From IMG/VR virus record IMGVR_UViG_3300043447_000086: a stretch of DNA of 64,000 bases. One strand, written 5' to 3'. Shown piece after piece: positions 3,565 to 55,136 of the stretch. The DNA comes from a virus (taxonomy: Duplodnaviria > Heunggongvirae > Uroviricota > Caudoviricetes). The notes under the pieces are model-generated. The model saw only the letters and a list, made by a program, of their open reading frames with translations. It searched no databases and had not been told where the DNA came from. Position 1 is the stretch's first letter; every line of letters begins with the position of its first letter. The position numbers were made by a program, and so were the translations under genes.

Positions 3565-3855
3565 TTAAGCGTCAGCAACAACTGCGTCGTCTGCTGCGTC
3601 ACCTGTCATAGAACCCATAGCTACTAAAGTCTCAGTCTTATTACGGACGTTACCTTGTGCATCGGTATATGTAACACGACGAACCCAACCAGCGTGTTGC
3701 ATACCTTTAGCTTTATTAGAAGCTACGTTTTCTTCTACAGCGTCAACGCCGTAAGTGATTGCTACACCAGCACTACCACCGACAGTTCCGTTAGCATCTT
3801 GGCTAATGAACTTTGGTTTGCTTTGTGCGTTATCTGTATTTCCCCATAGTGCCAT
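3565..3855 (-). CDS. Hypothetical Gly/Ala/Val/Thr-rich small protein
   Basis: 96 aa ORF; no motif recognised. Confidence 0.45.
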   Translation of the reverse strand: MALWGNTDNAQSKPKFISQDANGTVGGSAGVAITYGVDAVEENVASNKAKGMQHAGWVRRVTYTDAQGNVRNKTETLVAMGSMTGDAADDAVVADA

Positions 3856-3885: not shown

Positions 3886-4758
3886 TTATTTATTCTTCTT
3901 TGCTGACATGTCGTCAGCATCGTCGTCTTCTTTTTCTGGCTTTTGTGCAGAGCCACCATAACGACTACCTTTTTTAACACCAGCGCCACCACCTTGTTGC
4001 TGCTTATACTTGTCACCAAATTTAGCAGTATGTTCTGGAGTACCTGGCCATAGACCTTCTTTCAATGCCTGTAGAAGTTCTTCTGCGGTAAAGGATTCTT
4101 TCTTGACTTTCTTAGCATCTTCCCACTTTTCTTCATGTGGTTTATCACCAGCTGCGTGAACCTTATCAACGTCAACAGGCTTACCCATCTTTCCTTCTTT
4201 TAATTTTGTGCGAAGAAGTTTAAAGTCTTGCTTGTCCAACTTACCGTTTTTGTTCTTATCAAGATTAACTTGACCGCCTTTTAGCTGTTCTGAAATTTGA
4301 AACTTATGCATTTCCCCTGCTCCCATCTTTCCATCTTTGTGTGCTTTAATATGGACTTCTTTATCAGACTTGTGTTTTACAACACCAGATAGTTTGTCGC
4401 CAGTGCTTGAATGATAGAAATCAGTTTCTTGACCAGATGTCATATGTTTAGCCATTGTTGGGTGCATCTTACCAGCAGAAGCGTATTCACGATGATTAAC
4501 TTCATCGATCTGTTCAACTTCTTCTTTCATGCCTAGTTTACGTAGAAGGTTAGCCACCTTACCACGTTTACGGCGTTCTTTGTTCTTAGCGTCTGCTAGT
4601 TCTTGTTTGGCCATGGCAGCACTGTCAAATGTCCAAGATTCGTTATGTTGATCTTTCATTTCTTTATCCGTTTTCTTTTTAGTTGCTACATCGGGAACAC
4701 CAAGCTCGATCTTATCTGTTCCATTTGGTTGGATAGTACCTTCGTTCGTTTGTTTCAT
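3886..4758 (-). CDS. Highly charged Lys/Glu/His/Gly-rich protein with EF-hand-like Ca-binding loop (internal-head-protein-like)
   Basis: 290 aa of low-complexity charged sequence. The DKNKNGKLDKQD loop fits the canonical EF-hand pattern (positions 1,3,5 D/N, 6 G, 8 L, 12 D). First member of the block 3886-8837. Confidence 0.5.
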   Translation of the reverse strand: MKQTNEGTIQPNGTDKIELGVPDVATKKKTDKEMKDQHNESWTFDSAAMAKQELADAKNKERRKRGKVANLLRKLGMKEEVEQIDEVNHREYASAGKMHPTMAKHMTSGQETDFYHSSTGDKLSGVVKHKSDKEVHIKAHKDGKMGAGEMHKFQISEQLKGGQVNLDKNKNGKLDKQDFKLLRTKLKEGKMGKPVDVDKVHAAGDKPHEEKWEDAKKVKKESFTAEELLQALKEGLWPGTPEHTAKFGDKYKQQQGGGAGVKKGSRYGGSAQKPEKEDDDADDMSAKKNK

Positions 4759-5366
4759 TCGTGCCCCATATGTTTACGTAAGTCGTGGTATAATGCATCT
4801 TTGTGCTCAGGCTTCATCTTAGAAGGTAAATTCTTATGGAAGTCGCCTTTGTTACCAGAAGAAGCATGCTCACGCATCTTAGTTCCAGAAACTCCAGCAG
4901 TACCTTCAGAGTCTGGATCACGTTCTCCAGAAGAGTGCACGTGGATAGACTTAAAGTTATAATGGCCATGAGCAGCTTTTTGCCCATTATATTTATGCAA
5001 CAGTTCGTGCATTGCTTCGTGACGATCAGAGCCAGCAACAACGTGAAGATGTTTCACACCAGCCTTGTGTAAGTCTGCAGCGTGATGAAGAATAGTTGGC
5101 TTTTCTTTAGAAGCACCACGAACATTTGTTCCTGGAAATGCATTCTTGGCATGCTCGACTTTCTTATCAACAGGAAGTGGATTCTTCTTTTTATCTTCGC
5201 TGTGTGACAGAACCACATGATGTTCTGCGCCATGCTCTTTAGCAACTTCGTGAACCTTATTAACAACCTGTTCGTGTCCAGCTGTCGGAGGATTCATACG
5301 ACCAAAAGCCAAGACTGCATGCTTCTCAGTCTTAGCTTCTTTTAGGAATGATAGGAAGGATAACAT
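4755..5366 (-). CDS. HxGH-family nucleotidyltransferase-like protein with T4-type capsid-targeting N-terminus and His-rich C-terminal tail
   Basis: Track start at 5378 is GTG; first ATG is at 5366 (MLSFLSFLKE-AKTE). It carries the FGRMNPPTAGHEQVV (T/H)xGH nucleotidyltransferase motif. Its N-domain is paralogous to 7992..8837. The ATG overlaps the stop of the upstream gene by 1 nt (TAATG). Confidence 0.6.
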   Translation of the reverse strand: MLSFLSFLKEAKTEKHAVLAFGRMNPPTAGHEQVVNKVHEVAKEHGAEHHVVLSHSEDKKKNPLPVDKKVEHAKNAFPGTNVRGASKEKPTILHHAADLHKAGVKHLHVVAGSDRHEAMHELLHKYNGQKAAHGHYNFKSIHVHSSGERDPDSEGTAGVSGTKMREHASSGNKGDFHKNLPSKMKPEHKDALYHDLRKHMGHE

Positions 5367-6133
5367 TAGCAGTTCCACTTTCTTAGTGCCAACGCCTTGC
5401 GTGTTGGTTCACCATTTGGTTTACGCATTGGTCCTTCTACACCACTCATACGTGCGCAGAAAGACTTACGACGATTAGCGGCTTTGCTACCCTTCTTTAA
5501 CTTAGAAGGTGGTGTAGTAACTGGAGCCTTTAGATTAGAACCTTCTTTACGATTGTAAGCATCACGACCCTTTTGAGTCAAGCCACCAGTAGAAGACTTG
5601 TAACCTTTAGCATCAACTGCTGCTTCGTCTAGTTCTGTTTCTTCTTTGACGCAAGAGTCTTCGGCACATGGCTTGGATCCAGGTTTACGTTTGTAGCCTG
5701 TCCAGCATGTGCATGCTTCTAGTAACTCTTCATCGCTAAATTCATCTAATTCTTCCCAGACTTGCTCCAGGTCCATCTCAGTCTCTAAAGCGATTTCTTC
5801 TGCCATCTGTTCGATTAAATCGAAATGCTCATCAGCAGATAACTCTTCTTTAACATTGGTTGGGTGACCATTGATCGGCTTCTTAGTTGCTTTATATGCT
5901 TTGTGCTCTGGAGTACCCTTGATGTATTTTTTATCTAAAGTAGGAGCGACTGGAGCTTGTTCCACTACACTTTCGTTTTGTGATGCCTTTAGTGCAGCTG
6001 CAGTTGGTGCACCTTCACTTCCAGGTTTACGCATACGTTCGCCAGAACCAGCTTTGATGCGTTTACGTTTGGCGTGGATATTATCCCACAATCCACGTTC
6101 GCCTTCTTGTAGATAGTCGATAAATGTTTTCAT
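5366..6133 (-). CDS. Charged internal-head-protein-like protein with capsid-targeting sequence (MKTFIDYLQE-)
   Basis: The long track ORF (to 6235) would overlap the 79 aa gene by 100 nt in another frame. The internal ATG at 6133 gives MKTFIDYLQEGERG, matching the CTS motif shared by neighbours. Lys-rich, with a CTCWTGYKRKPGSKPCAEDSC Cys cluster. Confidence 0.55.
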   Translation of the reverse strand: MKTFIDYLQEGERGLWDNIHAKRKRIKAGSGERMRKPGSEGAPTAAALKASQNESVVEQAPVAPTLDKKYIKGTPEHKAYKATKKPINGHPTNVKEELSADEHFDLIEQMAEEIALETEMDLEQVWEELDEFSDEELLEACTCWTGYKRKPGSKPCAEDSCVKEETELDEAAVDAKGYKSSTGGLTQKGRDAYNRKEGSNLKAPVTTPPSKLKKGSKAANRRKSFCARMSGVEGPMRKPNGEPTRKALALRKWNC

Positions 6134-6134
6134 T

Positions 6135-6374
6135 TTAAGTCCCGTAAGTGTCGTCGATAGCACCAGAACGGAAACCAGTTTTCTGTGGTACGTGGCGTGC
6201 TGGTGGCGGTGGGTTCTTCTTTCTTTCTTCAGCACGTTTCTTTAGTAACTCTTCTGTCTCTTTTCTCTTTTGGTCAGCAGTTACAATACGTGCACCCTTG
6301 TAGCCCTTTTCGTGAGCCATCTTTAAAAAGTCGTCGGCTAGACCTTCTTGAATGAATTCTTTAAATGTGATCAT
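6135..6374 (-). CDS. Small charged protein with capsid-targeting-like N-terminus (MITFKEFIQE-)
   Basis: 79 aa; N-terminus matches T4 IP CTS MKTYQEFIAE pattern; PPPP motif; ATGA overlap upstream. Confidence 0.5.
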   Translation of the reverse strand: MITFKEFIQEGLADDFLKMAHEKGYKGARIVTADQKRKETEELLKKRAEERKKNPPPPARHVPQKTGFRSGAIDDTYGT

Positions 6375-7546
6375 TTCTTTACCTTTAATAAGTTAGCTTT
6401 TGCGAACTCAGAACGATTAACCAGCTTGGTTGGTTCATCTCTGTGATTGACAACGAATCCTTCTGGTTTAGATTTAGTTCCGTTGATGTGGTGTTCATAG
6501 CCACCCTCATGAGTTTCTAGATGTTTAACTAGAGTATTCTTGGCTTGTTGTAAGTGATGGTGCATAGCGAACAGATTGTTGTAGTGTTCTTTGTTCGCTT
6601 CTACATGGGAAACTTGATCAGCATGTTCAGCACGTTTTGCCGACTGTGATCTTTCAGTCTTAACTTTAGCAGCAGCTTTCTCGCCTTGTGCTGTGATATG
6701 CTTTTGGAAACCTTGTGCTGTTGGCTTCTCATCATTTTTAACAGTGCTGTTAATGTAAGTAGTCATATGAGTGCTTTCGCCACGATGCATCTGAGTAGCA
6801 CTGTACATATCTTTGCCATGAGTGTCATGGATCTTCTTAGCGGCATCCATATGGCTTTGGAATTCTTTGTGAGCACTTTCTGGATAGTGAATCTTAGAAG
6901 TGTCGTGCTCAGCTGTATGATGTGCAACATCCTTGTGCGAGCCGAACTCTTTGTCGCTAACATGCGGTGTGGCTTTCATAGAAGCCATTGTCTTACCTTC
7001 ATACTTGGTATGAGTGACAACACCCAGCTTAGCGTCTTTGTGTGCCTTAGCTTGGTCGCCTTTGGCAGTATAAGTGATAGTGTTTGGTTTGAAGGATACT
7101 TCACCCTTCTTGTGTTCAACATCACCACTGTGCATAATGTCACCTTGATATACACCCTTCTTAGGTGCAACTTTAGGTAGGTGGTCAAGAGCAGCTTTTA
7201 GTTTAGTAACTAGACCTGGAGCATGGCCATGGTGCTTCTCGATATCTTCGTGGGTGTAGTTTAGTTTTGGATTCTTATTGAATGCAGACTTGGAAGCGAC
7301 GAAAAACTTTTTGGTTTCTGGGTGGTGACCATAAACAACAGATGGAGAACCATCGTACTTCATAGTAAGATCACTAGACTTCTTACCCGATTTCATATGT
7401 TGATGTGCTTGTGTCAGAGCACCATGTGCATGCTCGAAACCAGTTTTACCGTGCATCAATGGACGGTCTTCTGCATGGTGAATGTGCTTTAGTTTAGCAC
7501 CTTCTGCTTCGGCTTCTTCTTTTAGAAAGTCGATAAAAGATTTCAT
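6371..7546 (-). CDS. Histidine-rich charged protein with capsid-targeting sequence (MKSFIDFLKE-), internal-head-protein-like
   Basis: 391 aa, extremely His/Lys/Glu/Gly rich (many HH, HxH and HGH runs), with the same N-terminal motif as its neighbours. Confidence 0.55.
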   Translation of the reverse strand: MKSFIDFLKEEAEAEGAKLKHIHHAEDRPLMHGKTGFEHAHGALTQAHQHMKSGKKSSDLTMKYDGSPSVVYGHHPETKKFFVASKSAFNKNPKLNYTHEDIEKHHGHAPGLVTKLKAALDHLPKVAPKKGVYQGDIMHSGDVEHKKGEVSFKPNTITYTAKGDQAKAHKDAKLGVVTHTKYEGKTMASMKATPHVSDKEFGSHKDVAHHTAEHDTSKIHYPESAHKEFQSHMDAAKKIHDTHGKDMYSATQMHRGESTHMTTYINSTVKNDEKPTAQGFQKHITAQGEKAAAKVKTERSQSAKRAEHADQVSHVEANKEHYNNLFAMHHHLQQAKNTLVKHLETHEGGYEHHINGTKSKPEGFVVNHRDEPTKLVNRSEFAKANLLKVKK

Positions 7547-8007
7547 TATCCTACCTTTTTAGCTGATGCCTTTAAGAACCAACCATGCTTCTGGTGAGTG
7601 TCGATTCTATCTGCGATAAAGTTACAAATACCTTGTTGTTTGTTTGCATTAGCAACATCAAACACTTTGTTTAAGTTTGCCAGCACTTCATTGTTGGCTT
7701 CGATAAGTTTAGCCAAGATGTCGACAATCAGAACAACACGAGTAGTTTCTTCTTCTAATGTTTTATACTTGTACAATTCATCAATACTTACTGGAGCATA
7801 ATCATCTAGTTTACGCAGCAGTTCAGCAGTTGGATCAATTGATCCGTACACATCGCTATACAAATCACCTAGAAAATCATGGTACTGTGTAAACTCAATA
7901 CCCTCAATGTTCCAATGGAATTGATGCGCCTTATAATACATAACTGTGGCATTGGCCAACAGAATTTTAATTCTTGTTTTTAACTCATCCATTATTTGGC
8001 TCTCCAC
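7546..8007 (-). CDS. Dps-like ferritin-fold DNA-binding protein
   Basis: 153 aa. The AHQFHWNIEGIEFTQYHDFLGDLYSDV ... DPTAELLRKLDD region matches the Dps ferroxidase-site pattern (HW.V.G..F..H ... D..AE). Confidence 0.6.
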   Translation of the reverse strand: MESQIMDELKTRIKILLANATVMYYKAHQFHWNIEGIEFTQYHDFLGDLYSDVYGSIDPTAELLRKLDDYAPVSIDELYKYKTLEEETTRVVLIVDILAKLIEANNEVLANLNKVFDVANANKQQGICNFIADRIDTHQKHGWFLKASAKKVG

Positions 8008-8837
8008 TCTTTAAACGACTCTTTAAAAAAAGGATCGAAGGTTTTACCGCTAAGTGGAACTGTGCCACTTTCTGCAGGAACCGATGTGTTCCCATTTTTA
8101 AATTTAAAATTCTTTTTTACTTGTTTGACTTCCTGGATCCACTTAGACACAAGTTTACCTGTTTCGTCTTTCAAAAGCAAATGATTTGACCCACGCTTTA
8201 CAATCTCGTATTCTACTCCATCGTTTTCAACGATGTCGCCAACATTAAAGATCTCGCCTCTGAAATATTGTTCTCTCAAGTCGTCTTTTACCAAGTTTAA
8301 CTGTTCTTTGATTGGCTCTAAACCAGAACCAATACGGATATCGTTCATCAAGCGACGACTATCAAGTTCACGAATAGAGGTAGGAAGATTCTTCTTAAAC
8401 TCTTCGTATAAACCTTTTGCTGCTAGACTTCTAGCAGAGTCTTCGCTATCAGGATCCTTGTCACCAATGGATACAGTTTCAACCATATACTTCTTCAATG
8501 ATTGAACCTTATCAGCGCTAGTAACAACGATGATGTTCTTATAGCTTTCCTTCAGTTTCTTGATCACATCACCGATGTTATCACCAGACTCTACAAAATT
8601 GGTCTTAGGGAACACCAGTTCAAGATACTGAAGTTTCTTTTCTACTAATAGGGGATTCTTTTTCGCATCGCTTACATTGGATGCATAGACTACGTGGTCT
8701 GCGCCTTTAGACTCAGCCAGCTTTTTAACAGTCTTGACCATCATCTCATGGGCTAGTGTTGGAGGATTAAATCTTCCGCAAGCTAAAACGACGGTTTTGG
8801 ACGGTAATTCTCTTAGGAATTGCTTATAATCTTTCAT
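7992..8837 (-). CDS. HxGH-family nucleotidyltransferase-like protein with capsid-targeting-like N-terminus (MKDYKQFLRE-)
   Basis: 281 aa. The VVLACGRFNPPTLAHEMM motif is paralogous to 4755..5366. An unrelated domain of about 130 aa follows at the C-terminus. Confidence 0.6.
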   Translation of the reverse strand: MKDYKQFLRELPSKTVVLACGRFNPPTLAHEMMVKTVKKLAESKGADHVVYASNVSDAKKNPLLVEKKLQYLELVFPKTNFVESGDNIGDVIKKLKESYKNIIVVTSADKVQSLKKYMVETVSIGDKDPDSEDSARSLAAKGLYEEFKKNLPTSIRELDSRRLMNDIRIGSGLEPIKEQLNLVKDDLREQYFRGEIFNVGDIVENDGVEYEIVKRGSNHLLLKDETGKLVSKWIQEVKQVKKNFKFKNGNTSVPAESGTVPLSGKTFDPFFKESFKEWRAK

Positions 8838-8881
8838 TTGAATCCATCTATAAAGTAATATACAATTATTTAGGAACGGTC

Positions 8882-10258
8882 TTATTTCATTGAGAACTTA
8901 ATACCTGTGTTATCCGAGTCCTTAGCGTTCGCTCCGTAAGCGAACTTGAATTCAGCGTTAGAAAATAACTTCTTCTCGAAAGAGAGCTTGTCGCCACTAA
9001 AGTTTAGGTAGACCTGTTCAGTCTTCATCTCTCGACTGATGTTGTTTAGTATTTCTTGGTAGATCTTGTTCTTGTTCATATAGTCAACAAGAGCGTATCC
9101 CATAGGAGCTAGAACCAACGAATAGTATTTCTTGTAGCTGGCACCAGCAAAAACGATATCCAGAGAATCCTTAGAGGCAGTCTTACCCAGTTCTTCGTAG
9201 ATAGCACCAAACTCGGTCTGAAACATCTTCAGGCGATTAGCTGGAGTCTTACTAGCGCTGGCAATCTTTTGGATAGAAGCAGATACGTCCAAGATCGTGA
9301 AGTTTGGTTTACCTACAACAGACTTCAACTTATTATAAGCAGGTAGCTTAAGAGTCTCAAAAGCCTTTAGAATTTTGGTTGATGTGTTATCATCTTTACC
9401 AGCCAGAGCCTTTAAAACGTTGATAGCTTTTAGCTCTTCTACCTTTGGTGTTTTATAAACTTTATCGAGGTTATTCACGATAGCACCAATAGAAGGTGCA
9501 GCACCAGCTTCGAACTTGGCGGATACATCTGAGCGGATAGTTTTATTACCGACTTTACGATCAACGTAGAAGTCAATCAGTGCCTCGTTACTGATAACAG
9601 AGAAGCCGAACTTCGTCCAACCTGCGCCATGTGGTTGAGTTAGATACCAACGCAGAGAAAGAATCTCACCGAAGTCTTTACCGATAGCTTGACGGTCTTG
9701 CGGCTTAACTGCAGTCATCGCTTTCTTTGCTGCAGCATTCATTGGGACGTTGTCTGTTTTAGCTTTGTTGTCTGCAACAGACTTATACAGTTGAACTAGT
9801 GCAGTCTTGATATCAGAACCTACCTTCAACTTTTCTATACCATCGTAGACAGCTTTGTCGAAAGATGCTAATGAAGTGTATCCGCTGGCTGTAGTTAGTC
9901 CAAGTTTATCTGGTGCTAAGTCTTTTGTTTTTAACGTACCCTTTTCAGTGTATGTATTGACCAAGAAGAAAGACTCACCTTTGGTCACACCACCAGAAGC
10001 TGTAGTTATCTTTATAAGTTTAGCTTTGTACTTACCAGAGATAGCCTTTTCTTCTGTTGCTGTCAGGTCGTTTATGGTTGCAAGAAGACCAGTCACTTTC
10101 AGTAACTTGTCTAAGCTATCTGAGTAAGCAACCTCTACTGCTTTGATCTGAGTTTGGTAACGAGATGTCTTGATAGAAGCAGAAATGCCCTTCTTTTCTA
10201 GATGGGCTTTAATCTTCTTGGCTGTTTCAGCCATCTTCTCGTAATCGTAATTTGCCAT
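8882..10258 (-). CDS. Hypothetical protein (458 aa)
   Basis: Long ORF, Lys/Ala/Thr rich, no motif recognised. It lies between the capsid-targeted block and the modification-like operon. Confidence 0.55.
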   Translation of the reverse strand: MANYDYEKMAETAKKIKAHLEKKGISASIKTSRYQTQIKAVEVAYSDSLDKLLKVTGLLATINDLTATEEKAISGKYKAKLIKITTASGGVTKGESFFLVNTYTEKGTLKTKDLAPDKLGLTTASGYTSLASFDKAVYDGIEKLKVGSDIKTALVQLYKSVADNKAKTDNVPMNAAAKKAMTAVKPQDRQAIGKDFGEILSLRWYLTQPHGAGWTKFGFSVISNEALIDFYVDRKVGNKTIRSDVSAKFEAGAAPSIGAIVNNLDKVYKTPKVEELKAINVLKALAGKDDNTSTKILKAFETLKLPAYNKLKSVVGKPNFTILDVSASIQKIASASKTPANRLKMFQTEFGAIYEELGKTASKDSLDIVFAGASYKKYYSLVLAPMGYALVDYMNKNKIYQEILNNISREMKTEQVYLNFSGDKLSFEKKLFSNAEFKFAYGANAKDSDNTGIKFSMK

Positions 10259-10286
10259 AGTTAGTTTATTATACAGAACTAACTAT

Positions 10287-10985
10287 TTAGGTCAAGTGTC
10301 TTGAATACTTCCTGTCCCACTTGGCGATCTGTTGTATGATCTTCTGTGGTGAGATATTGTTTCTAAAGTCGTAGTCGAACGTTTTTAGAAAGTAATGAAG
10401 GGTAGAAGAATCACGGTGCCTCTTACAGCGATCTAATAGTATATGTAGTGGAACATTTGGCTTGTTCATCTTGTAGTCAAGATAGACGCAGTGGGCATAT
10501 GCTTGGATCTCATCGAACTCAGATAGGTATCTTCGCTCGGCATCCTTGAGAGAGTGTCCAACTCTTTTGTATGGAACCACATAGCTGCTGGACTCATCAT
10601 AACGACGATCGTATTGCATAAAGTGGATCATCTCGTGCATCAAGGTTTGGATAACACGGTACTTAAACTTGTCCCAAGTTTGTTGAGTGAATGCGTGTTT
10701 ATCGAAATTTACACTGTAAATGTGTATGGTACATTGGCGCTCGTCTGGCGCATACTCTCCGCCAACTGCTACATACTTTAACCAGACTTTATTCTTTTTT
10801 AGCGGATCTCTGAACTCTACTCTAGTTCGCCACTTCTTAAAGTAGTTGGAGAGACCAGTCGAGTTATTTTTATACTCGTCTAAGTCTCTCCAAATTCTAG
10901 CAGGAATGAGTTTAGCTCTAAATGGACGCTCATAGAAATTGAGCATGTCCATCCAGTCGAAGGTGGCTTTCTCTAGGAAATTCAT
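10287..10985 (-). CDS. HExxH zinc-metallopeptidase-like protein (SprT/WLM-like?)
   Basis: 232 aa, with TLMHEMIHFMQYD (HExxH) and downstream H and E residues. Last gene of the operon that follows gp41. Confidence 0.45.
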   Translation of the reverse strand: MNFLEKATFDWMDMLNFYERPFRAKLIPARIWRDLDEYKNNSTGLSNYFKKWRTRVEFRDPLKKNKVWLKYVAVGGEYAPDERQCTIHIYSVNFDKHAFTQQTWDKFKYRVIQTLMHEMIHFMQYDRRYDESSSYVVPYKRVGHSLKDAERRYLSEFDEIQAYAHCVYLDYKMNKPNVPLHILLDRCKRHRDSSTLHYFLKTFDYDFRNNISPQKIIQQIAKWDRKYSRHLT

Positions 10986-11007: not shown

Positions 11008-11616
11008 TTAGCCTAGATGTTTGTCCAAGAAGGCTAGGACTTTCGTTTGATCCTCTAAGTTAGTGTTGCTGAACTCAGTAATATAGGGCATTAACTCAAA
11101 ATTAGATAGTAGATTACTATATTTAGTCTCTCGCCCTCTTAGGAATTGCTCAGACTGGTCGGAGCCACGATCCTTGTAGCGTTGCTCTAGAAGATCCTTG
11201 GGAGCCTTCAAATAGACCACCTGCAAATCAGTGTTCGGAAGTCCCATACAGAACTCCAAGAAAGACTGATTGAAGACTCGGTCTCCCTCGAAAAGGATGT
11301 TACAGTTATGAGAAGCGATCCACTCTTGAAGTGGAGGCTGAACTGCCATAGAAAGGCGGTCTGTTCCAGCGAAGGTTTCACCTTCCTCGTACTTTCCAAG
11401 TACATACAAATCACGGTCTACATTATAAGAAGCCGAGACTAGCTTGGCTGGCTCTCCGACGATCCAGTCTTTACCTTCCATATACTTACGGAACAAGGTA
11501 GTCTTGCCAGTTCCAGGTTGTCCACCAACGGCAATAATCTTACGTGTCTTCAACGTGTTCTTAATAAGCTGAACACTAATCTGATCTTGAACACCCAATT
11601 TATCAACAAATGACAT
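11008..11616 (-). CDS. P-loop kinase (candidate DNA/nucleotide 5-hydroxymethyl kinase)
   Basis: 202 aa with Walker A IIAVGGQPGTGKTTLF near the N-terminus and a Walker-B-like LFEGDRVF. Size and position resemble phage 5-hmdU DNA kinases, but that function is inferred only. Confidence 0.5.
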   Translation of the reverse strand: MSFVDKLGVQDQISVQLIKNTLKTRKIIAVGGQPGTGKTTLFRKYMEGKDWIVGEPAKLVSASYNVDRDLYVLGKYEEGETFAGTDRLSMAVQPPLQEWIASHNCNILFEGDRVFNQSFLEFCMGLPNTDLQVVYLKAPKDLLEQRYKDRGSDQSEQFLRGRETKYSNLLSNFELMPYITEFSNTNLEDQTKVLAFLDKHLG

Positions 11617-11626
11617 TTTATATCCT

Positions 11627-12646
11627 TTAAGCGAATGCTTCCAATCCCATTAGAACAGGTTCTTCATCATCGAACATCCATTCCAAATTTTGTAATTTAC
11701 CAGTACGAATAAAGTTAGGGAATCGTTCTTTATCAATACCACGTTTATCATCAAGTCTCAAGTCGATGGTTTCATTACGTGCATCCCACATAACCTGCCA
11801 CTCAATACCGTACCACCCATCTTTCTCAGATTGTAGAATTTCTTCTGCTTGACGATCTAGGTAGTAACCAAGATAACGCCCATGCTTTTCACGAAAGATC
11901 TTCTTGAAAGAACAAAGGCAAGTCTCCATAGTGAAGTAGTCTATTTGGTGTGCCAACTCTGGGAATCTTGATCGCATTTCTTCAAGAATACTTCTGCCAT
12001 GAGCCTCAAGTCCTGAATACTCCAATGTAGTGAGTTTTCTATCATAATCGTCATCTTTGCCAAGGGCATAAAGTAGTCCATTACGATGAGAGCGAGAGCC
12101 ATCATAATCGTCCAGCATAAGACTAGTGGGCTCAATAGCAATACCAGCAGTGTGCCTAAGATGTTGCATATAGAACCAAGTACTATAACGACCAAACTTA
12201 TGTAGGCTTCCTTTAAGAATTTCCCACAGTCTTGTAAAGTTCTGTTCTTCATTGTCTCCATAATAACTTTCCAGTTTTTCACGTTGAGTATTGTTACCGA
12301 TAAACTTCTGGTATGACTCGAACATGGATGGTAGATGTCCCTTATTCCACTTTGTATCTGTTTGATAACGAAGGCGTTTATAATTGGTCGTATTCCACTG
12401 AGTGATGCGATCTACTGTAGCTAGTTCAAAGTCTGGGAATTCGTTCTTCAATACCCATGCAGTTGGAAGCTGATACGTGTTACCGTAGAGCCATGCAAAC
12501 CAGATTCGTTCTTCGTCATTGTGGCTGTATCTGTTGTGCAGATAGTTTGTAGCCCAGACAGCTGGATCGCAATCATCATACTTCAATGACCAAGCATACC
12601 AACGGATGAATGCTTCTCTGCGGTTTTGTTTTAAACGATAATCCAT
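11627..12646 (-). CDS. Hypothetical Trp/Tyr-rich protein (candidate base-transferase partner of the kinase)
   Basis: 339 aa, no recognisable motif. Translationally coupled with both neighbours (ATGA at 12646). Confidence 0.5.
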   Translation of the reverse strand: MDYRLKQNRREAFIRWYAWSLKYDDCDPAVWATNYLHNRYSHNDEERIWFAWLYGNTYQLPTAWVLKNEFPDFELATVDRITQWNTTNYKRLRYQTDTKWNKGHLPSMFESYQKFIGNNTQREKLESYYGDNEEQNFTRLWEILKGSLHKFGRYSTWFYMQHLRHTAGIAIEPTSLMLDDYDGSRSHRNGLLYALGKDDDYDRKLTTLEYSGLEAHGRSILEEMRSRFPELAHQIDYFTMETCLCSFKKIFREKHGRYLGYYLDRQAEEILQSEKDGWYGIEWQVMWDARNETIDLRLDDKRGIDKERFPNFIRTGKLQNLEWMFDDEEPVLMGLEAFA

Positions 12647-13287
12647 TATTCTAAAAATTCTTCAAGAGAAGGTTCATTCAACAATGCGTCACGAAGCCAT
12701 GCATTACCCACAGCGTCAATTGCTGCTTGTGTCTTGGCTTTCTTCTTTTCGCCCCAAGTATAGTTTTCTAACCCTTCTTTTCTAAACTGCTCTCTAGCTT
12801 TCGATGGCGGTAGAGCTTGTTTCGGGCTAGCTGTAGCGAAGTTTCTAAATGCGATCTGTTCGACACGTGTGGGGAAAAGAGGCTGGTCAGAACGTAACGA
12901 GCCTGTGGGGTCAACTGCCCAGAAGATGAGACCATTTCTGTAATGCCATGTGACCGAAGATGGTGTACATGATATCTTAAGTCTTGTAGTATTCCTCTCT
13001 TTGACTGCATAATCAATCCATGCATCCCAGCACTTGGACGCATATCCCTTTCCTTCTTTTCCTTCTAGTGTGACAATTTCGTAGAGATTGGCGTAACCAT
13101 CTCGATTGAACGTAGCGAAAATTAAACAAACAACTTCACCATTATCCTCATAAGCCATAGGTGGACACTTCTCGTAGTTCTTGAAGCGATACCACAATGA
13201 GTGCGCAGCCGATAAGAACTTGGTGTTCTTACCAGCTGGGCTTTCTTTGATTAGTTGTTCTACTTTAGTTGAATTAACGAATAACAT
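12646..13287 (-). CDS. GNAT-fold acetyltransferase-like protein
   Basis: Start trimmed to the ATG at 13287 (GGTGGA Shine-Dalgarno, no overlap with the amidotransferase). The EGKEGKGYASK segment resembles GNAT motif A (Q/R-x-x-G-x-G/A). Confidence 0.45.
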   Translation of the reverse strand: MLFVNSTKVEQLIKESPAGKNTKFLSAAHSLWYRFKNYEKCPPMAYEDNGEVVCLIFATFNRDGYANLYEIVTLEGKEGKGYASKCWDAWIDYAVKERNTTRLKISCTPSSVTWHYRNGLIFWAVDPTGSLRSDQPLFPTRVEQIAFRNFATASPKQALPPSKAREQFRKEGLENYTWGEKKKAKTQAAIDAVGNAWLRDALLNEPSLEEFLE

Positions 13288-13990
13288 CTTGTAAATCCAC
13301 CGCACCTTTGATCTCGACATTTTCGATAGACATCGTCAGATCTCCGTCGAAAACGCAGTACATATTCATATTCATTAGATAAGGTTCTTCCTCGATACCT
13401 GCTCGTTTAATTACATCGGCAGTAGAAGTAATTATACATCCATTATCTAAGTTTGTCAAATATAATGGACGCTTACCGTTGCGGAATGCAGTAAGAGTTC
13501 GATTCTTATCGAGGACACAAACTGCAAGCGATGCATCTTTCCACTCAACTAGCGGAGACTTACCAGCTGCAAAGGTATGCAGTAACAGTTCGGTGTCATT
13601 CTTACCTTGGCACTTGTAACCATACAACTGTTCCCAATTCTCTGGAAGTTCTTGAGTGATGACACCATTGTGGGCTACACTCATATAGTTGTTCCAGATC
13701 GGTTGATTGTACTCAAGATCAGAAGTGCTATAACGACAGTGTCCGATTAGATACAAGTTACCATCATCAGCAACCATATCTGCTAAGTTGTCGTTGTGTA
13801 AAAACTTTTCAATGAACTTATCCGCTGGGATAGGTTCTACGATGTTTTCAATACCACTGGACCACCTAGGTAGGAATGAGATACCAGTGGCGTGTAAGCC
13901 ACGAATACGAGACTCGTGGAATACCCGCTTGATCATATCAAAATCATCACGTGTGGGCTTTTGAATAATAGCCCCAATTACTGCACACAT
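13274..13990 (-). CDS. Class II (Ntn) glutamine amidotransferase domain protein
   Basis: 238 aa starting MCAVIGAI (Cys at position 2 is the Ntn nucleophile). RGLHATGISF, IGHCRYSTSD, AHNGVI and NDTEL match PurF/GlmS N-domain motifs. TAATG overlap with the dioxygenase. Confidence 0.65.
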   Translation of the reverse strand: MCAVIGAIIQKPTRDDFDMIKRVFHESRIRGLHATGISFLPRWSSGIENIVEPIPADKFIEKFLHNDNLADMVADDGNLYLIGHCRYSTSDLEYNQPIWNNYMSVAHNGVITQELPENWEQLYGYKCQGKNDTELLLHTFAAGKSPLVEWKDASLAVCVLDKNRTLTAFRNGKRPLYLTNLDNGCIITSTADVIKRAGIEEEPYLMNMNMYCVFDGDLTMSIENVEIKGAVDLQDVIR

Positions 13991-15321
13991 TACATAAAGC
14001 CCTCAAGTGCACCAACAGTAGTTGTCTTTGGTGGGTGATACTTATCAACCAGATCTTGACGACCTTTGTTGATCAAGAAGTCATACCATTCTTGGTCGTC
14101 CCACATACCTTGGCTAACACCATTCCACAGATGGCGTGCAGATCCATCTTCGTTCAAGTGTCCTGGATGCTCTTTGTTTAGGCGACGAGACTCAACGTAT
14201 TCATAGCGCAAGTCTTCGTAGTCTTTAGTGCCAAGGTCAAGCATCTTCTCACGGAAATAGCAAACCAGTGAAACACGTTCTGCTTCTTCGTCCAGCAATT
14301 TAATTTCAGTATTACCGTGCATAACTTCGTGGTTGTTAATCAGCAACAAGTCACCTGGACGCACGTTAACCGCAACACGATACTCTGGAGCAACAAGGTA
14401 GCAACCAGAGTAGTTACCATTGTTGGAAAGAACCAACAGATTAGACAAACCAGTTGTCAGGTCGCCTGCATCAAAGTGGCAAGCAGTGCGGAATGTTTTG
14501 TTCACTGTAATAGTAGTGAACGGAGTTCCTGGGACTAAGAAGCCTTTATCAATCTTGCTTGCAGCTTCCATCTGTGCAGTGAAACGTTGTGGCAGCAACT
14601 CCTTAAAACCTTTAGCAAGAGTTTGTAGGAATGGGAATGCCATAGCAAACTTCTGTGGCTCACGTTGAGTGTAAGATGTAGCACGACCATAAGGGATACG
14701 TGGATAACGATCAAACCAACCAGCAATACCAGAGAACACACCATTAGCGTAAGTAGTAGAACAAACGTACTTCTTAACGATACGATCTACTTCTTTCTTC
14801 TTTTGGTCATCCGAAAGTTGCTTGGTTGCGTCTACCCAAGTTTCAAAGTCGAAGTTATCTTTCTTTACTGCTTGAATACCCCAAACGTTGTTACGTGTAG
14901 AAGGCTGTTCTTTCTTACCTTTATGCGCTGCACGGATATCTTCGATTGGGTCATCACCATACAAGTTTGCACCTGGATTTGAGAAGTAGTCGATAATATC
15001 AGACTCATACTCAGTAACCCATTCACGATTACCCAACTTCTCGCCACGTGGACCAGCAGCCATACCACGGTTCTGCGTTTCTACTGCAGCCTCACGCAGA
15101 CCAGCATAGGCTTGATCTTGTTGCTCTTTACTGAAATAGTTCTTGCGGAACTTTAAGATAATTCTTTCTTCACTGTGAGTTAGCTCAGGATGACCTGGGA
15201 TCTCAGGCATATAGACATCCATATCTTCTTCGATAAGAAGATCATAATCTTTCTCTGTAGGAAATTGCCCTTCCATATGCGAGCAATCGTGTTTGATTGG
15301 TGCTACTAATACCTTAACCAT
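13990..15321 (-). CDS. 2-oxoglutarate/Fe(II)-dependent dioxygenase, TET/JBP-like (candidate nucleic-acid base hydroxylase)
   Basis: Start trimmed to the ATG at 15321, which has an AAGGAG Shine-Dalgarno 6 nt upstream (the track ORF began inside the helicase gene). The C-terminal double-stranded beta-helix carries the facial triad CHFDAGD ... HEVMHGNT plus the Arg in VSLVCYFR. An acidic N-domain of about 170 aa precedes it. Confidence 0.55.
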   Translation of the reverse strand: MVKVLVAPIKHDCSHMEGQFPTEKDYDLLIEEDMDVYMPEIPGHPELTHSEERIILKFRKNYFSKEQQDQAYAGLREAAVETQNRGMAAGPRGEKLGNREWVTEYESDIIDYFSNPGANLYGDDPIEDIRAAHKGKKEQPSTRNNVWGIQAVKKDNFDFETWVDATKQLSDDQKKKEVDRIVKKYVCSTTYANGVFSGIAGWFDRYPRIPYGRATSYTQREPQKFAMAFPFLQTLAKGFKELLPQRFTAQMEAASKIDKGFLVPGTPFTTITVNKTFRTACHFDAGDLTTGLSNLLVLSNNGNYSGCYLVAPEYRVAVNVRPGDLLLINNHEVMHGNTEIKLLDEEAERVSLVCYFREKMLDLGTKDYEDLRYEYVESRRLNKEHPGHLNEDGSARHLWNGVSQGMWDDQEWYDFLINKGRQDLVDKYHPPKTTTVGALEGFM

Positions 15322-15331
15322 TTCTATCTCC

Positions 15332-18546: not shown

Positions 18547-19095
18547 TTATGGATTGTTCTTGGAATGCGGTACATCGAAAACGAATGTAACACGAACACA
18601 GTCACCAATATTTTTAGTCCCATGTGGTAATTTATTATTGAACCAGAGTAATGTTCCAGGTTCTACTGTAACAGACTCATCTCCTACAGTGTATATGTAT
18701 CTGCCTTGAATAGACAGATGATAACGATCTCGAGTTTGGTAGTAACTACCAATATCGATGTGTTTTCCAACTTCGCCACCAACTGGAAGTGAAAGGAAAC
18801 CACAACGACTAAACTTTTTAAAGTTGCGTTTTAAGAATCGAACAACTTCAGTGTGTCTTTGTATTGCTGGAGTTGGAACACAAATCTCTGTGTCACCAAC
18901 GTATTGATCTATAGATTCTACACCACCCATAACAAGTTGTAGCACACCAGCTTCCACCTGAGGGAAACCACGATCAAGCATAGACTTAACCCCAGCAACA
19001 TTGAGTTGGCTTCCCCAGTCTTCTGGGTATGCGTTCAACTGTGCCAAAATCTTTGATACATTGATACCAGTTTTAATTATTCGGATATTATCCAA
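18547..19095 (-). CDS. Cupin-fold 2OG-Fe(II) oxygenase-like protein (Asp/Asn beta-hydroxylase-like)
   Basis: 182 aa with GKHIDIG ... LPHGTKNIG (HxD/H ... H metal triad). Confidence 0.5.
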   Translation of the reverse strand: MDNIRIIKTGINVSKILAQLNAYPEDWGSQLNVAGVKSMLDRGFPQVEAGVLQLVMGGVESIDQYVGDTEICVPTPAIQRHTEVVRFLKRNFKKFSRCGFLSLPVGGEVGKHIDIGSYYQTRDRYHLSIQGRYIYTVGDESVTVEPGTLLWFNNKLPHGTKNIGDCVRVTFVFDVPHSKNNP

Positions 19096-42604: not shown

Positions 42605-42619
42605 GATTAGCTCCTAATC

Positions 42620-43594: not shown

Positions 43595-43649
43595 TCTAAA
43601 CTCCTTAGAATCTTGTAGGGTGACCACCACCCTACAATTTATATATCGA

Positions 43650-52094: not shown

Positions 52095-53402
52095 TTACAT
52101 TAGGTTTGTAACACGAACCTTGCGGTAGTAGTAGTTGTTACCAGAAGCAAGACCATCAGCGCCAGCGTCGATAGTAGTGAATGGGTTAGCAACTAGACCG
52201 TAACGAGTCTTGAAACCAATCTTTGGTTGGAAAGATTGTGGATCAACTGCACGAACCATTTGTAGAGGAACGTATGGGCAGTAGAACATACCTGCGTCGA
52301 ACGCAGAAGTACCCTTGTAACCAACAACGAAGAATTGGTTAGCAGATACGTTAGCAGTATATGGGTCAACATACACTTTGTACTTGCCGTTTAGAATACC
52401 AGCGAAAGTAGTAGAAGTGTCGTCAACAGTCAGGTTATTCTTGCCAGTTAGGGCAGAAGAATAGTCTAGAACACCAGCCATCGCCAATGCAGAAGCAACG
52501 TCTGCAGAAGTGATGATGATGTTACCACGACCACGACGTGTTTGTTGACCGATAGCATTGGCTTCACGTTCGATTTGGAACATTAGACCTTTGAACTTTT
52601 CAACAGACCAACGACCGTTAGAGTCAACGTCCAAGTCGAAAGTACCAGCAGTAGCAGTACCAACTGCAGCACCTTGCTTAGCAGCAGTGTAAACAGTACG
52701 AACAACTTCACGGTTGATTTCAGAAAGGATTTCTGTAGAAAGGATGTTGCTCAATTCGCCTTCAGCGTCAAGACCGTGAACAGATTTCAAGTCTTGTGCC
52801 AATTCGATAGAGTATTCAGCCTTCAAAGCACGAGTCTTTGCAGTTACAGAAGTCTTTTCGATAGAGAATGCCATCTCACCGAAAGCACCGTCACCGTTAC
52901 CGCCTTGACCAAGACGCTCAGCAGCGGCAGTAGCCATACCAGTACCAGTAGTGTTGTTTGCTGGATCCCAAGAAGAACCAGCGTGAGTGCCAGTACCAGA
53001 GAAGTCAGTATCTGCTTCGTTGAACAACGCTTCAGTACCGTTTTGAGCAGCGTAGCGAGACTTCATTGCGAAGATCAAGCCAGTTGGCTGAGTCATTGGC
53101 TGAACACCAGCGATATCATAAGCGATAAGCTGTGGCATTGCACGACGAACTAGGGAGATCAATACTGGGTCGAAACCAGCCATTTGACCGTTAGTACCTG
53201 CACCGCCCATGGAGACGCCAGTACCACCAAAGTTAGTTGGAGCAGTTTCGAAAAGTGCTTCAGCTTGCTTTTGCATTTCACGTTCTTGGTTTTCCAAAAG
53301 AACGGCAGTAACCTCTTTACGGTACTGATCTTTGAAAGCTGGTGCACCTTCGTGATTCAACACTGGTGCCCATTTTTCCATTAGAGCTTGACGAGTTGTC
53401 AT
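52095..53402 (-). CDS. 23: Major capsid protein gp23
   Basis: 435 aa. Follows the gp20-gp21-gp22 morphogenesis block. Composition and length typical of T4-like gp23. Confidence 0.85.
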   Translation of the reverse strand: MTTRQALMEKWAPVLNHEGAPAFKDQYRKEVTAVLLENQEREMQKQAEALFETAPTNFGGTGVSMGGAGTNGQMAGFDPVLISLVRRAMPQLIAYDIAGVQPMTQPTGLIFAMKSRYAAQNGTEALFNEADTDFSGTGTHAGSSWDPANNTTGTGMATAAAERLGQGGNGDGAFGEMAFSIEKTSVTAKTRALKAEYSIELAQDLKSVHGLDAEGELSNILSTEILSEINREVVRTVYTAAKQGAAVGTATAGTFDLDVDSNGRWSVEKFKGLMFQIEREANAIGQQTRRGRGNIIITSADVASALAMAGVLDYSSALTGKNNLTVDDTSTTFAGILNGKYKVYVDPYTANVSANQFFVVGYKGTSAFDAGMFYCPYVPLQMVRAVDPQSFQPKIGFKTRYGLVANPFTTIDAGADGLASGNNYYYRKVRVTNLM

Positions 53403-53419: not shown

Positions 53420-54436
53420 TTAGATTTTGTTGAGTGCTGATAGATATGCAGACATTTTTGGATCGACAGGGGCTACCTTCTTTTCCTCAGTCAACACTTC
53501 TACTGGAGCGTCAGTAACAACAGATGCTACTTCAGTCTTCTTACCAGAGAAATAATTCTCACGGATAGTCTTGACTTTAGTCTCATAAGTTCCTGCGTCT
53601 TCATAAGAAAGTTCTTCAACTAGGCTCATGAACTTTTCAGTTTCAGAGTCAGTCAAACCTTCGCTGATTTGTTTAACAATCTCTTGACGCTTAGCTTCTG
53701 CCAAAGTCTTAGTCAACTCAACGTTGGTTTCGACTTGTTCATTTAGCTTAGCTTCCAAAGCAGTAATTTTTTCTTCCATTTCGCCAAGTACATCGTACTT
53801 TTCTTCTGGAATATCAATATAATGCTCTTCAAAGAGACCTTTCAAGCCAGTAATGAAACCTTCTAAGATCTCAGACTTGATACCACGCTCAAGGGCTAAT
53901 TCATTCTGTGCAATCCACTGCTCGGCAATATAGCCAAGATATCCATCAACTTGTTCAACAATTCCCTGAGTATTCTGCTCGACTTGCTCAGCAAGTTTAG
54001 CTTCGAATTCTTCGCTAATACGTGCAACTTCTTCGTTAACACGTGCTAAAACAGCTGCTTCATAAATTGTAGCTGCTTTAGATTTAAAATCTTCTGTTAG
54101 CTCTTCACCATTGAAAAGAGCATCCATATCTTCTTTCATGCCTTTAGAGGCAGTTCCTTGACGGATAGGAGCTTGGTCACCATTTTTAGGATTTTGAGAT
54201 CCTTGTGGTGCAACTTCAGCTTGCTTCTCGTCGTCCACGTTATTACGTGCAGAGTCTGGATTAGGTGTTTCACCACCGCTTGGTACTGCGTCACCTTGAC
54301 GGATGACAGCTTTCTCACCAGATGCGCCAGCAGCAACATCTTTAGCGCCTGTCTCAGCACCACCTAGTTTTGCTTCATCTAGTTTTTGCTTTTTAGATTC
54401 AGCTAGAATCTGTGCAATCTTTTGTTCGATAGACAT
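53420..54436 (-). CDS. 22: Prohead core scaffold protein gp22
   Basis: 338 aa, highly acidic coiled coil with multiple L/IxE protease sites. Between genes 21 and 23. Confidence 0.75.
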   Translation of the reverse strand: MSIEQKIAQILAESKKQKLDEAKLGGAETGAKDVAAGASGEKAVIRQGDAVPSGGETPNPDSARNNVDDEKQAEVAPQGSQNPKNGDQAPIRQGTASKGMKEDMDALFNGEELTEDFKSKAATIYEAAVLARVNEEVARISEEFEAKLAEQVEQNTQGIVEQVDGYLGYIAEQWIAQNELALERGIKSEILEGFITGLKGLFEEHYIDIPEEKYDVLGEMEEKITALEAKLNEQVETNVELTKTLAEAKRQEIVKQISEGLTDSETEKFMSLVEELSYEDAGTYETKVKTIRENYFSGKKTEVASVVTDAPVEVLTEEKKVAPVDPKMSAYLSALNKI

Positions 54437-54482: not shown

Positions 54483-55136
54483 TTATCTGATTTTACTCAG
54501 AAAATTTTGGAAAGCGTGCAATTTAGCTTCCTCTAGTTGTCGAGTAGAAGCCTTTCTGATTGAAGCCTTAGCAGCTTCGATTTGTTGCTCCACAAACTTT
54601 CCATCAATATAAATCCACTCTTTGTTTTCCATAATACCACGGACAAAAGCGTCTGGGGCAGATGGGTCTGCCACGATGTCCGCAGCAGTGGATAACATAA
54701 AGTCATCCTGAACAACATTAACCCCTTCTTTATTTAATTGAAGAGAGCCAAGTGCTCTTGAAGAAACACCAAGATTAGCGCCACCGTCTAGAAGACCTCT
54801 AGCGATGTTGCCCATTGGAGTCTCTAAAATCTTTGCCTTACCGATGTAGTTAGTACCTTCTTTGCGAAGGTCAACGATAAGATGGGAGACACGGTCCAAG
54901 TTAATAGATGGAGTGTCTGGGTGACCAAGTTCACCGTAAGCACGGTTGTTCTGAACTTGTTCTTGTAAGTAACGTGCAACTTCCTTGTCCATAACATGCT
55001 CTGGGTACATACGCTTGTTACGGTTCTGGATGTTTGACTGTAGGAAGACACCTTCAATAAAGTATGTCTTGCCTTTGCCTAGCTTCTCTTCAACGATCAG
55101 CTTGGCTTCTTGGATGTCTTCTCTAATTAGTTTCAT
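54483..55136 (-). CDS. 21: Prohead protease gp21
   Basis: Start trimmed to MKLIREDIQ. GKGKTYFIEGVFLQSNIQNRNKRMYPEHVM aligns with T4 gp21 GEYKGLFIEGIMMQSNVVNRNKRIYKKEIL. Confidence 0.85.
   Translation of the reverse strand: MKLIREDIQEAKLIVEEKLGKGKTYFIEGVFLQSNIQNRNKRMYPEHVMDKEVARYLQEQVQNNRAYGELGHPDTPSINLDRVSHLIVDLRKEGTNYIGKAKILETPMGNIARGLLDGGANLGVSSRALGSLQLNKEGVNVVQDDFMLSTAADIVADPSAPDAFVRGIMENKEWIYIDGKFVEQQIEAAKASIRKASTRQLEEAKLHAFQNFLSKIR

Follow-up and report, generated by a model that had tools for sequence, protein, structure and literature searches.

A stretch of 64,000 nt of viral DNA (IMG/VR record IMGVR_UViG_3300043447_000086, the whole of which is called the window here) carries on its minus strand, from 8837 to 3886, a run of seven genes, five of which encode proteins starting with a ten-residue leader that matches the capsid targeting sequence (CTS) of phage T4. 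Sequence comparison and analogy with T4 together give strong indirect support to the view that these leaders are T4-type CTSs cut by a gp21 protease, and hence that the proteins bearing them are cargo packaged in the head. Taken as a whole, the region is likely to be best explained as a late operon of closely packed genes from an uncultured Kyanoviridae-like myovirus of the T4 superfamily, encoding head-internal cargo.

The phage and the operon

The window is DNA of a T4-superfamily myovirus, and nearly all of its genes, including every one for which window coordinates are given below, lie on the minus strand. Its major capsid protein gp23 (52095..53402; Pfam Gp23 E=1e-140) is 62-64% identical to capsid proteins of Kyanoviridae, namely those of cyanomyoviruses, Methylophilales phage Melnitz and Pelagibacter phage HTVC008M. 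The phage itself is uncultured and its nearest relatives are metagenomic contigs; a search of phage records for near-identical DNA found no match to the window.

A preliminary description of this DNA had reported six consecutive genes at 3886-8837, five of them starting with the decapeptides. The exact starts of these five were confirmed, but seven genes were counted, the two leaderless ones being a Dps/ferritin-like gene and a Lys/Glu-rich one. Stop and start codons overlap (TAATG, ATGA) or stand one base apart for six of the seven. Gene 1 (7992..8837) encodes a CTP_transf_like protein of 281 aa, here CTase-L, with the leader MKDYKQFLRE (8808-8837) and a small C-terminal domain. The start of gene 2 (7546..7992; 148 aa, Dps/ferritin-like, no leader) overlaps the stop of gene 1 at TAATG. 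Gene 3 (6371..7546) encodes a DUF6267 protein of 391 aa with the leader MKSFIDFLKE (7517-7546); it had been described as His-rich, and His indeed makes up 11% of it. Gene 4 (6135..6374; leader MITFKEFIQE, 6345-6374) encodes a basic protein of 79 aa, and gene 5 (5366..6133; leader MKTFIDYLQE, 6104-6133) a protein with an acidic middle and a C-terminal DUF6321 domain, whose length of 255 aa is counted from an internal ATG of a longer listed open reading frame (ORF). Gene 6 (4755..5366; leader MLSFLSFLKE, 5337-5366) encodes a second CTP_transf_like protein, CTase-S, of 203 aa and 13% His. The final gene of the overlapping set, gene 7 (3886..4758), encodes a leaderless, Lys/Glu-rich basic protein of 290 aa.

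A late-promoter-like motif, CCTAAATA, was found at 8867..8874 on the same strand, 30 nt ahead of gene 1. Elements of the form (C/A)TAAATA also precede gp18, gp19, gp22, the head protein gene starting at 3855 and the genes starting at 10258 and 52028. These CCTAAATA and (C/A)TAAATA elements may be T4-type late promoters (TATAAATA), as we presume them to be.

The leaders and the T4 capsid targeting sequence

The T4 CTS, MKTYQEFIAE (bioRxiv 10.1101/2021.01.19.427310), localises cargo to the scaffolding core (PMC10229621). Amber-suppressor mutagenesis of the internal protein (IP) IPIII has assigned targeting to residues 4 and 7 and processing to residues 8 and 10, and Asp at position 10 blocks cleavage while targeting is kept (PMC9026906). 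All five leaders of the window have F or Y at positions 4 and 7, L or I at position 8 and E at position 10, so each contains the putative hydrophobic-x-Glu gp21 site that had been described for it. The leaders are up to 8/10 identical to that of T4 gene 61.1 (MKTFKEFIKE).

These same positions were found to be the conserved ones when 120 close homologs were collected for each of the DUF6267, CTase-S and DUF6321 proteins. The leader pattern was matched by 111/120 of the DUF6267, 101/120 of the CTase-S and 65/120 of the DUF6321 homologs. Among the matching DUF6267 and CTase-S homologs, F4 is present in 98-100%, F/Y7 in 99-100%, L/I8 in 98-100% and E10 in 98-100%, while positions 2, 3, 5, 6 and 9 vary freely. 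Position 7 of the DUF6321 homologs is Y, F, L or H; His7 is the sole systematic deviation, and most of the non-matching sequences differ at this position alone. In other respects the DUF6321 family shows the same conservation as the other two. Since positions 4, 7, 8 and 10 are kept while the rest vary, the conserved positions of the leader are the functional positions of the T4 sequence.

The motif is also rare. The pattern M..[FY]..[FY][LI].E matched five times across the six frames of the 64 kb, and all five matches are the gene starts in the operon. A looser version added a single match, internal to the NAMPT gene. Shuffled windows gave a mean of 0.1 matches and a maximum of 1 (200 shuffles). 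The chance expectation among 77 N-termini is about 0.006, and the probability of five or more is about 4e-14. In a control scan covering the first 150 kb of T4 (the last 19 kb lying outside it), the pattern matched ipII, ipIII and gene 61.1 only. T4 IPI has a related leader of 19 residues, MKTFKEF...ITE, followed by A.

It is a peptide, not a duplicated DNA cassette, that is under selection, because the five leaders use differing codons and the 20 nt upstream of their starts are unrelated (3-11/20 identical). Repetition of the motif as a DNA cassette, such as a duplicated promoter or ribosome-binding site, is ruled out by the same two observations. The five proteins, whether unrelated or paralogous, have only residues 1-10 in common. 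AF2 models of the DUF6267 protein and of CTase-S both place residues 4-13 in a short helix that stands apart from the fold, with very low confidence in the former (pLDDT 34-40) and low-to-moderate confidence in the latter (61-85). The 458-aa protein encoded upstream (MANYDYEKMAE) was considered as a sixth cargo protein and rejected, as it does not fit the pattern and its Glu is replaced by Asp in L003, a 92%-identical metagenomic relative.

The window further encodes the head machinery on which such a leader would depend in T4. A gp21 protease had been noted previously, and the product of 54483..55136 is confirmed as a gp21-type prohead protease (Pfam Peptidase_S77 E=2e-39), the predicted leader-removing enzyme; its start at 55136 (MKLIREDIQE...) was placed by reference to the upstream gene, which ends at 55138. 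A gp22-type scaffolding core protein (53420..54436; Pfam T4_CASP E=2e-71) is encoded as well.

T4 gene 61.1 (18966-19130 of record L016; 54 aa, annotated as hypothetical) starts with MKTFKEFIKE followed by D, which is a perfect CTS. It may be an unrecognised fourth internal protein of T4.

Conservation of the block and of the leader

The CTS-tagged block is syntenic in L003, Melnitz, Stenotrophomonas phage DLP6 and S-CRM01. The conserved gene order is DUF6267, CTase, head protein, DUF7207. In most of the relatives examined the block is placed between the helicase (gp41) side and the primase (gp61). T4 gene 61.1 sits between genes 41 and 61 and may, we infer, be a remnant of the same locus.

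This location among replication genes, from the helicase side to the primase, would suit a helix addressed to some other site (a membrane, the replisome or a phage compartment) or serving as a degron, its likeness to the T4 CTS being convergent, and short amphipathic N-terminal helices are generally known to have many targeting roles. Such an explanation is hardly credible, however, for a phage of the T4 superfamily that has homologous gp21, gp22 and gp23, leaders matching those of T4 at up to eight of ten residues, and a motif that is associated with virion proteins. The syntenic position of gene 61.1, with the same leader, points moreover to common descent.

A T4-type targeting leader, the preferred interpretation, seems to have been acquired and discarded independently of the protein behind it. 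Among 150 DUF6267 representatives clustered at 50% identity, 58 have a 10-residue leader and 8 a 9-residue one. Many of the others begin directly at the conserved KLxHLEHxED, as do the proteins of S-PM2, S-SZBM1 and S-CRM01. The occurrence of DUF6267 homologs with and without the leader marks it as a detachable module, gained or lost on the same enzyme. A comparison of leader-bearing with leaderless homologs, made to look for adaptation to a head filled with DNA, found no difference in basicity or His-richness: all are basic (pI 8.8-9.4, with one exception), and His-richness is confined to the clade of the window. The DUF6267 protein (11% His) and CTase-S (13% His) of this clade stand against 1-6% His in the Melnitz, DLP6 and cyanophage homologs, and many of the His residues are invariant within the clade. 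Metal binding and pH-dependent behaviour inside the head are possible explanations.

Virion proteomes of relatives

The CTS has been expected to carry 'an array of proteins' in T4 relatives (PMC9026906). S-CREM2 has 221 coding sequences, and mass spectrometry detected the products of 52 (PMC10665884, Table 3). Its genome was scanned with the regular expression fixed beforehand. Five annotated N-termini carry the motif, and all five proteins are in the virion proteome (P=6e-4); when two undetected proteins with loose-only matches are counted as failures, the result is 5/7 (P=0.009). The five detected proteins are gp6, a 'SAM hydrolase' (MKDFDSFLEE), gp13 (MKDLHSFLTE), the kinase gp14 (GTG start, KRFDAFLTE), gp136 (MQTFSMFFSE) and the cytidylyltransferase gp154 (MKNFSSFLTE). 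Three of the four non-lytic 'non-structural' virion proteins singled out by the S-CREM2 authors carry the leader, the fourth being gp12. The virion proteome also includes gp137, which has the same C-terminal DUF6321 domain as the product of gene 5.

The 'Cas9-like' gp12 of S-CREM2 (7704-10313 of record L012), itself in the virion proteome, has a 25-residue leader ending LRFASFMAE before A, and g128 of S-CRM01 (5953-6504 of record L006) has one of about 25 residues ending LSLDSFIKE before A; a start of the form M..xRW..WS.G is common to both. These leaders may form a second class, longer than the decapeptides and comparable with the 19-residue leader of T4 IPI.

Homologous 'cytidylyltransferases' have been detected by mass spectrometry in virions of both S-SZBM1 and S-CREM2 (PMC9146016, PMC10665884), and the S-CREM2 authors note their 'frequent detection' in cyanophage virion proteomes (PMC10665884). 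The CTases of the window are 26-38% identical to these cyanomyovirus virion proteins (E=1e-20 to 1e-35). A packaged nucleotidyltransferase-like enzyme, which the preliminary description took for a T4-type cargo not yet described, therefore has precedents. The S-SZBM1 CTase detected in virions (S-SZBM1_140) has a 9-residue variant of the leader, MRFRQFIIE, while the adjacent, leaderless DUF6267 protein is missing from the virion list of that phage. This list holds 30 detected proteins and is underpowered as a second genome-wide test, giving little further support and no contradiction. In S-CRM01 the 821-aa kinase g130 starts with MISFDQFLSE and the CTase g127 with MKLFNQFFKE; a statement in the S-CREM2 paper (PMC10665884) has a putative protein kinase homologous to gp14 reported from S-CRM01 virions.

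A number of observations weigh against packaging of the tagged proteins of the window. The regular expression was derived from the same five sequences that it recovers; the T4 determinants and the S-CREM2 test do not depend on how it was chosen. The leader is absent from two genes of the operon, those for the Dps-like and the 290-aa protein. Many DUF6267 homologs, including most of those from cyanophages, have no leader, so the enzyme evidently needs no packaging to work. The virion evidence comes from relatives outside the close clade, and cleavage and injection have been shown in T-even phages alone. S-SZBM1 191 and 192 have perfect leaders (MKSFKSFLSE, MKTFKQYITE) and are not in the virion list, so that only 1/3 of the leader proteins of this phage were detected. 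Finally, the S-CREM2 authors warn that abundant non-structural proteins may co-purify with virions (PMC10665884).

The undetected S-SZBM1 proteins bear on the possibility that the leaders do target the prohead core, but that the proteins are components of assembly, like T4 gp67 and gp68 or the scaffold, which are degraded or expelled rather than injected. In T4 most core proteins are degraded by gp21, and a head protein gene adjoins the operon. A single cut after the CTS nevertheless leaves T4 cargo in the head (bioRxiv 10.1101/2021.01.19.427310), homologs of the CTase and of the DUF6321 domain are present in mature, CsCl-purified virions, and folded enzymes with conserved catalytic motifs would make poor disposable scaffolding. 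Assembly components of this kind are thus considered improbable.

S-SZBM1 191 and 192 (122311-123125 of the record) lie close to the genes for the large terminase and the neck, next to a 'virion structural protein' and outside the helicase-primase block, which indicates that cargo genes occupy more than one locus in cyanophages. S-SZBM1_192 is a homolog of the DUF6321 domain.

The warning about contamination, together with the many leaderless homologs, would accord with ordinary cytoplasmic enzymes of metabolism or repair that were carried over into virion preparations, the motif being a relic or a feature of translation initiation; the CTase is indeed treated in the literature as an auxiliary metabolic gene (PMC9146016). 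Contamination would not, however, pick exactly the five leader-bearing proteins from the 221 of S-CREM2, nor would a relic hold positions 4, 7, 8 and 10 invariant over hundreds of homologs (60-90% identity) while the others drift. Conservation extends neither to the codons nor to the upstream DNA, and a signal for translation initiation is thereby excluded. Carry-over is accordingly regarded as highly doubtful.

Packaging by way of a T4-type CTS, as first proposed in the preliminary description, has thus gained the support of the determinant positions, of the specificity of the motif in T4 and of its association with the virion in S-CREM2; the anti-defence or host-takeover roles proposed along with it are still conjecture.

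Predicted enzymes among the proposed cargo

The product of gene 3 matches Pfam DUF6267 (E=1e-93). Its K63-Y64-D65-G66, a KYDG sequence corresponding to motif I (KxDG) with the lysine nucleophile, is invariant across 55 homologs, and KWDGAP or KYDGAP is also present in the S-PM2, S-SZBM1, Melnitz and DLP6 homologs. D136, E362-G363 and K374 are likewise invariant and are candidates for the ligase motifs III, IV (EG) and V (K..K). No Pfam ligase match was obtained, the DUF6267 profile found nothing in the PDB, and Foldseek comparison with RNA ligases was not significant; the modelled fold shows a modest likeness to RNA ligases. The protein is probably a ligase-type (lysine) nucleotidyltransferase and would be a third nucleotidyltransferase beside the two CTases, one that was missed in the preliminary description. 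In contrast to the nick-sealing RNA ligases (Naegleria NgrRnl/Rnl5, T4 Rnl2, trypanosome REL1), to which it has no match at the level of sequence or profile, the DUF6267 model contains an insertion, a bundle of helices some 120 residues long, ahead of the putative motifs IV and V, and has neither an OB nor any other C-terminal domain.

The two nucleotidyltransferase-like proteins that had been noted as paralogs both exceed the cut-off of Pfam CTP_transf_like (PF01467; 25.7 bits for CTase-L and 23.0 bits for CTase-S against 21) and are 33% identical to each other. Comparison with HIGH-motif nucleotidyltransferases revealed a Rossmann-like nucleotidyltransferase fold. Searches of the PDB with single CTase and DUF6267 sequences were uninformative. 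In CTase-S the motifs PTAGH and VSGTKMR are both intact and are conserved in the family, and it is accordingly predicted to be an intact HIGH-type adenylyltransferase-like enzyme. CTase-L, which falls in PHROG 395/3041 ('cytidyltransferase'), may be catalytically degenerate or inactive, as TLAH replaces TxGH (TLGH in L003) and a stretch of seven residues holding the ISxTxxR-like motif is absent. It may be a non-catalytic partner of CTase-S. Its C-terminal domain of about 60 residues is a separate small gene in S-PM2 (S-PM2d141) and matches PHROG 4808.

The CTases were also considered as nicotinamide mononucleotide (NMN) adenylyltransferases orthologous to NadD, NadM or NadR. This assignment was rejected, their best scores on the NCBIfam equivalogs being 19.4 and 15.7 bits against cut-offs of 112 and 341. 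CTase-S differs from the NMN/NaMN and phosphopantetheine adenylyltransferases, the HIGH-motif enzymes closest to it among known systems, scoring 15-19 bits on the NCBIfam NMN adenylyltransferase equivalogs (cut-offs 112-341), and so is not an ortholog. The NadM-type protein of the window itself (42620-43630) scores 241 bits on the NadM-type model.

The DUF6267 and CTase families occur fused in other phages, as in S-PM2 (591 aa), in PHROG 455 and in 25/150 of the family representatives, which argues that the two work together. Phage records matched number 468 for DUF6267 and 558 for 'cytidyltransferase', most of them cyanophages.

Other members of the operon

The gene 2 product matches Pfam Ferritin (E=2e-19, 70 bits; cut-off 24.5) and scores 31-45 bits on the NCBIfam Dps equivalogs, whose cut-offs are 114-300. 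L003 has the same Dps-like gene in the same arrangement, likewise leaderless. Gene 4 is the member of the operon most like the T4 IPs, its mature product being 69 aa long with an isoelectric point of 9.7. The gene 4 leader is 8/10 identical to that of T4 gene 61.1 and 6/10 to those of T4 IPII and IPIII; the counterpart in L003 has the leader MISFKEYVTE. No Pfam or PHROG family was matched by gene 4. The gene 5 product matches Pfam DUF6321 (E=2e-25), and gene 7 gave only sub-threshold Pfam matches and no PHROG; the L003 counterpart of gene 7 is 643 aa long and has the C-terminal part in common with it.

The conserved block ends with the head protein gene (3565..3855; 96 aa, MALWGNTD..., PHROG 613 'head protein'), which has its own ATAAATA motif. 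The protein is homologous to S-SZBM1_136 and S-PM2d145, both annotated as 'virion structural protein', and S-SZBM1_136 has been seen by mass spectrometry in virions.

A possible route into the host

By analogy with T4, the N-terminal CTS on five of the seven products would act as a short amphipathic helix, with aromatic residues at positions 4 and 7, that docks the cargo onto the gp22 scaffolding core during prohead assembly. The gp21-type protease would then cut after Glu10, reading Leu/Ile8 (P3) and Glu10 (P1), so that the decapeptide leaves and the mature proteins stay with the DNA in the head. As with the T4 IPs and Alt, these proteins would enter the host along with the DNA, before any phage gene is expressed. 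The cargo would be mostly enzymatic, comprising the DUF6267 protein, CTase-S and a possibly degenerate CTase-L, together with the DUF6321 protein and the basic protein of 69 aa.

What the cargo might do on entry is guesswork. One guess is that nucleic-acid ends or nucleotide cofactors are the substrates of the ligase-like and adenylyltransferase-like proteins. A more specific proposal, which must be called rather unlikely, is that the DUF6267 protein and the CTases form one preloaded, injected unit acting in the first seconds, before transcription, either by resealing or adenylylating ends cut by host nucleases in the incoming DNA or in tRNA and other RNA, or by rebuilding an adenylylated cofactor depleted by defences. 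If true, such a ligase/adenylyltransferase unit would be a new class of enzymatic counter-defence and would provide a function for two families found in hundreds of cyanomyovirus records. The small basic protein of gene 4 may, at a guess, inhibit a restriction enzyme that targets modified DNA. It is a reasonable candidate for this role because a hypermodification cluster lies just upstream of the operon and all three T4 IPs inhibit restriction enzymes targeting modified DNA (PMC12373910).

Neighbouring genes

The thymidine hypermodification cluster (11008-15411) is directly upstream of the cargo operon and encodes a Tet_JBP oxygenase (13990-15411), a glutamine amidotransferase (13274-13990), a GNAT protein (12646-13320), the amino-acid:DNA transferase ADDT (11627-12646) and P-loop nucleotide kinase 3 (11008-11616). 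Radical-SAM and Trp-halogenase-like enzymes replace these genes in L003, and the modification chemistry therefore differs between close relatives. In the adjoining 15412-16712 (about 1.3 kb) the ORFs of both strands are all short and tRNA genes are absent; a tRNA scan of the whole window likewise found none.

At 30138-31581 an AhpD-like protein of the carboxymuconolactone decarboxylase family (30138-30644) is encoded near an AhpC/TSA peroxiredoxin (31039-31581), in what looks like a phage-borne pair for peroxide detoxification. At 41210-43630 a NAMPT gene (NCBIfam PRK09198, 656 bits; cut-off 405) adjoins that for the NadM-type bifunctional NMN adenylyltransferase/Nudix protein mentioned above, whose 241 bits are below the cut-off. 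Such a gene pair reportedly constitutes an NAD+ reconstitution pathway countering NAD-depleting defences, a finding credited to Osterman et al. in 2024. The NAMPT/NadM-type pair is distinct from the two CTS-tagged adenylyltransferase-like proteins.

Significance and comparison with known systems

Should the T4 address label prove valid throughout the marine T4 superfamily, a motif of ten residues would predict the injected proteins of uncultured phages from sequence alone; the S-CREM2 proteins that it singles out include a SAM hydrolase-like protein, a kinase and a 'cytidylyltransferase'. Few genes of unknown role are as widespread in ocean myoviruses as DUF6267 and the 'cytidyltransferase', both of which are currently treated as auxiliary metabolic genes. 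As packaged cargo they would be factors of the first minute of infection, with packaging gained and lost repeatedly. Cultured phages with and without the leader on the same enzyme exist, so the comparison is testable. No report was found in the literature linking virion-associated CTases to a conserved CTS, using the CTS as a predictor beyond the T-evens, or describing the leader as a module gained and lost or DUF6267 as having a ligase-like fold; most subscription journals lay outside this search and earlier mentions are possible.

The closest known system is that of T4 IPI, IPII and IPIII; knowledge of their CTS dates from the 1990s (Mullaney & Black 1996; reviews PMC9026906, PMC3012670). 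The window has in common with it a 10-residue leader with aromatic residues at 4 and 7, Leu/Ile8 and Glu10, the same families of protease and scaffold, and several unrelated cargo proteins that share the leader alone, one of which (79 aa) is small and basic. The T4 IPs are, however, small inhibitors of GmrSD type IV restriction enzymes (PMC12373910), whereas 4/5 of the predicted cargo proteins of the window are large (203-391 aa) and three are enzyme-like. The T4 IPs are also encoded at scattered hyperplastic loci of T-even phages, whereas the five genes of this Kyanoviridae-like phage lie in one operon.

T4 Alt offers the precedent of a head-borne enzyme that gp21 processes and that reaches the cell together with the DNA, to act before phage gene expression (PMC9026906). 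Its N-terminus, MELITELFDE, has the same pattern of hydrophobic residues at 4, 7 and 8 and Glu at 10 as the window leaders. Alt is an ADP-ribosyltransferase that is also processed C-terminally (PMC9026906), unlike the predicted ligase-type and HIGH-type nucleotidyltransferases of the window.

The virion CTases and kinases of cyanomyoviruses (S-CREM2 gp154 and gp14, S-SZBM1_140 and their S-CRM01 counterparts) resemble the window proteins in their leader, in the homology of the CTases and in the conserved block to which they belong. The papers on S-CREM2 and S-SZBM1 are silent on a targeting leader and on gp21 processing (PMC10665884, PMC9146016). Cyanomyoviruses have one CTase where the window has two paralogs, and their DUF6267 proteins, in those examined, are leaderless, whereas in the clade of the window DUF6267 and DUF6321 are tagged too.

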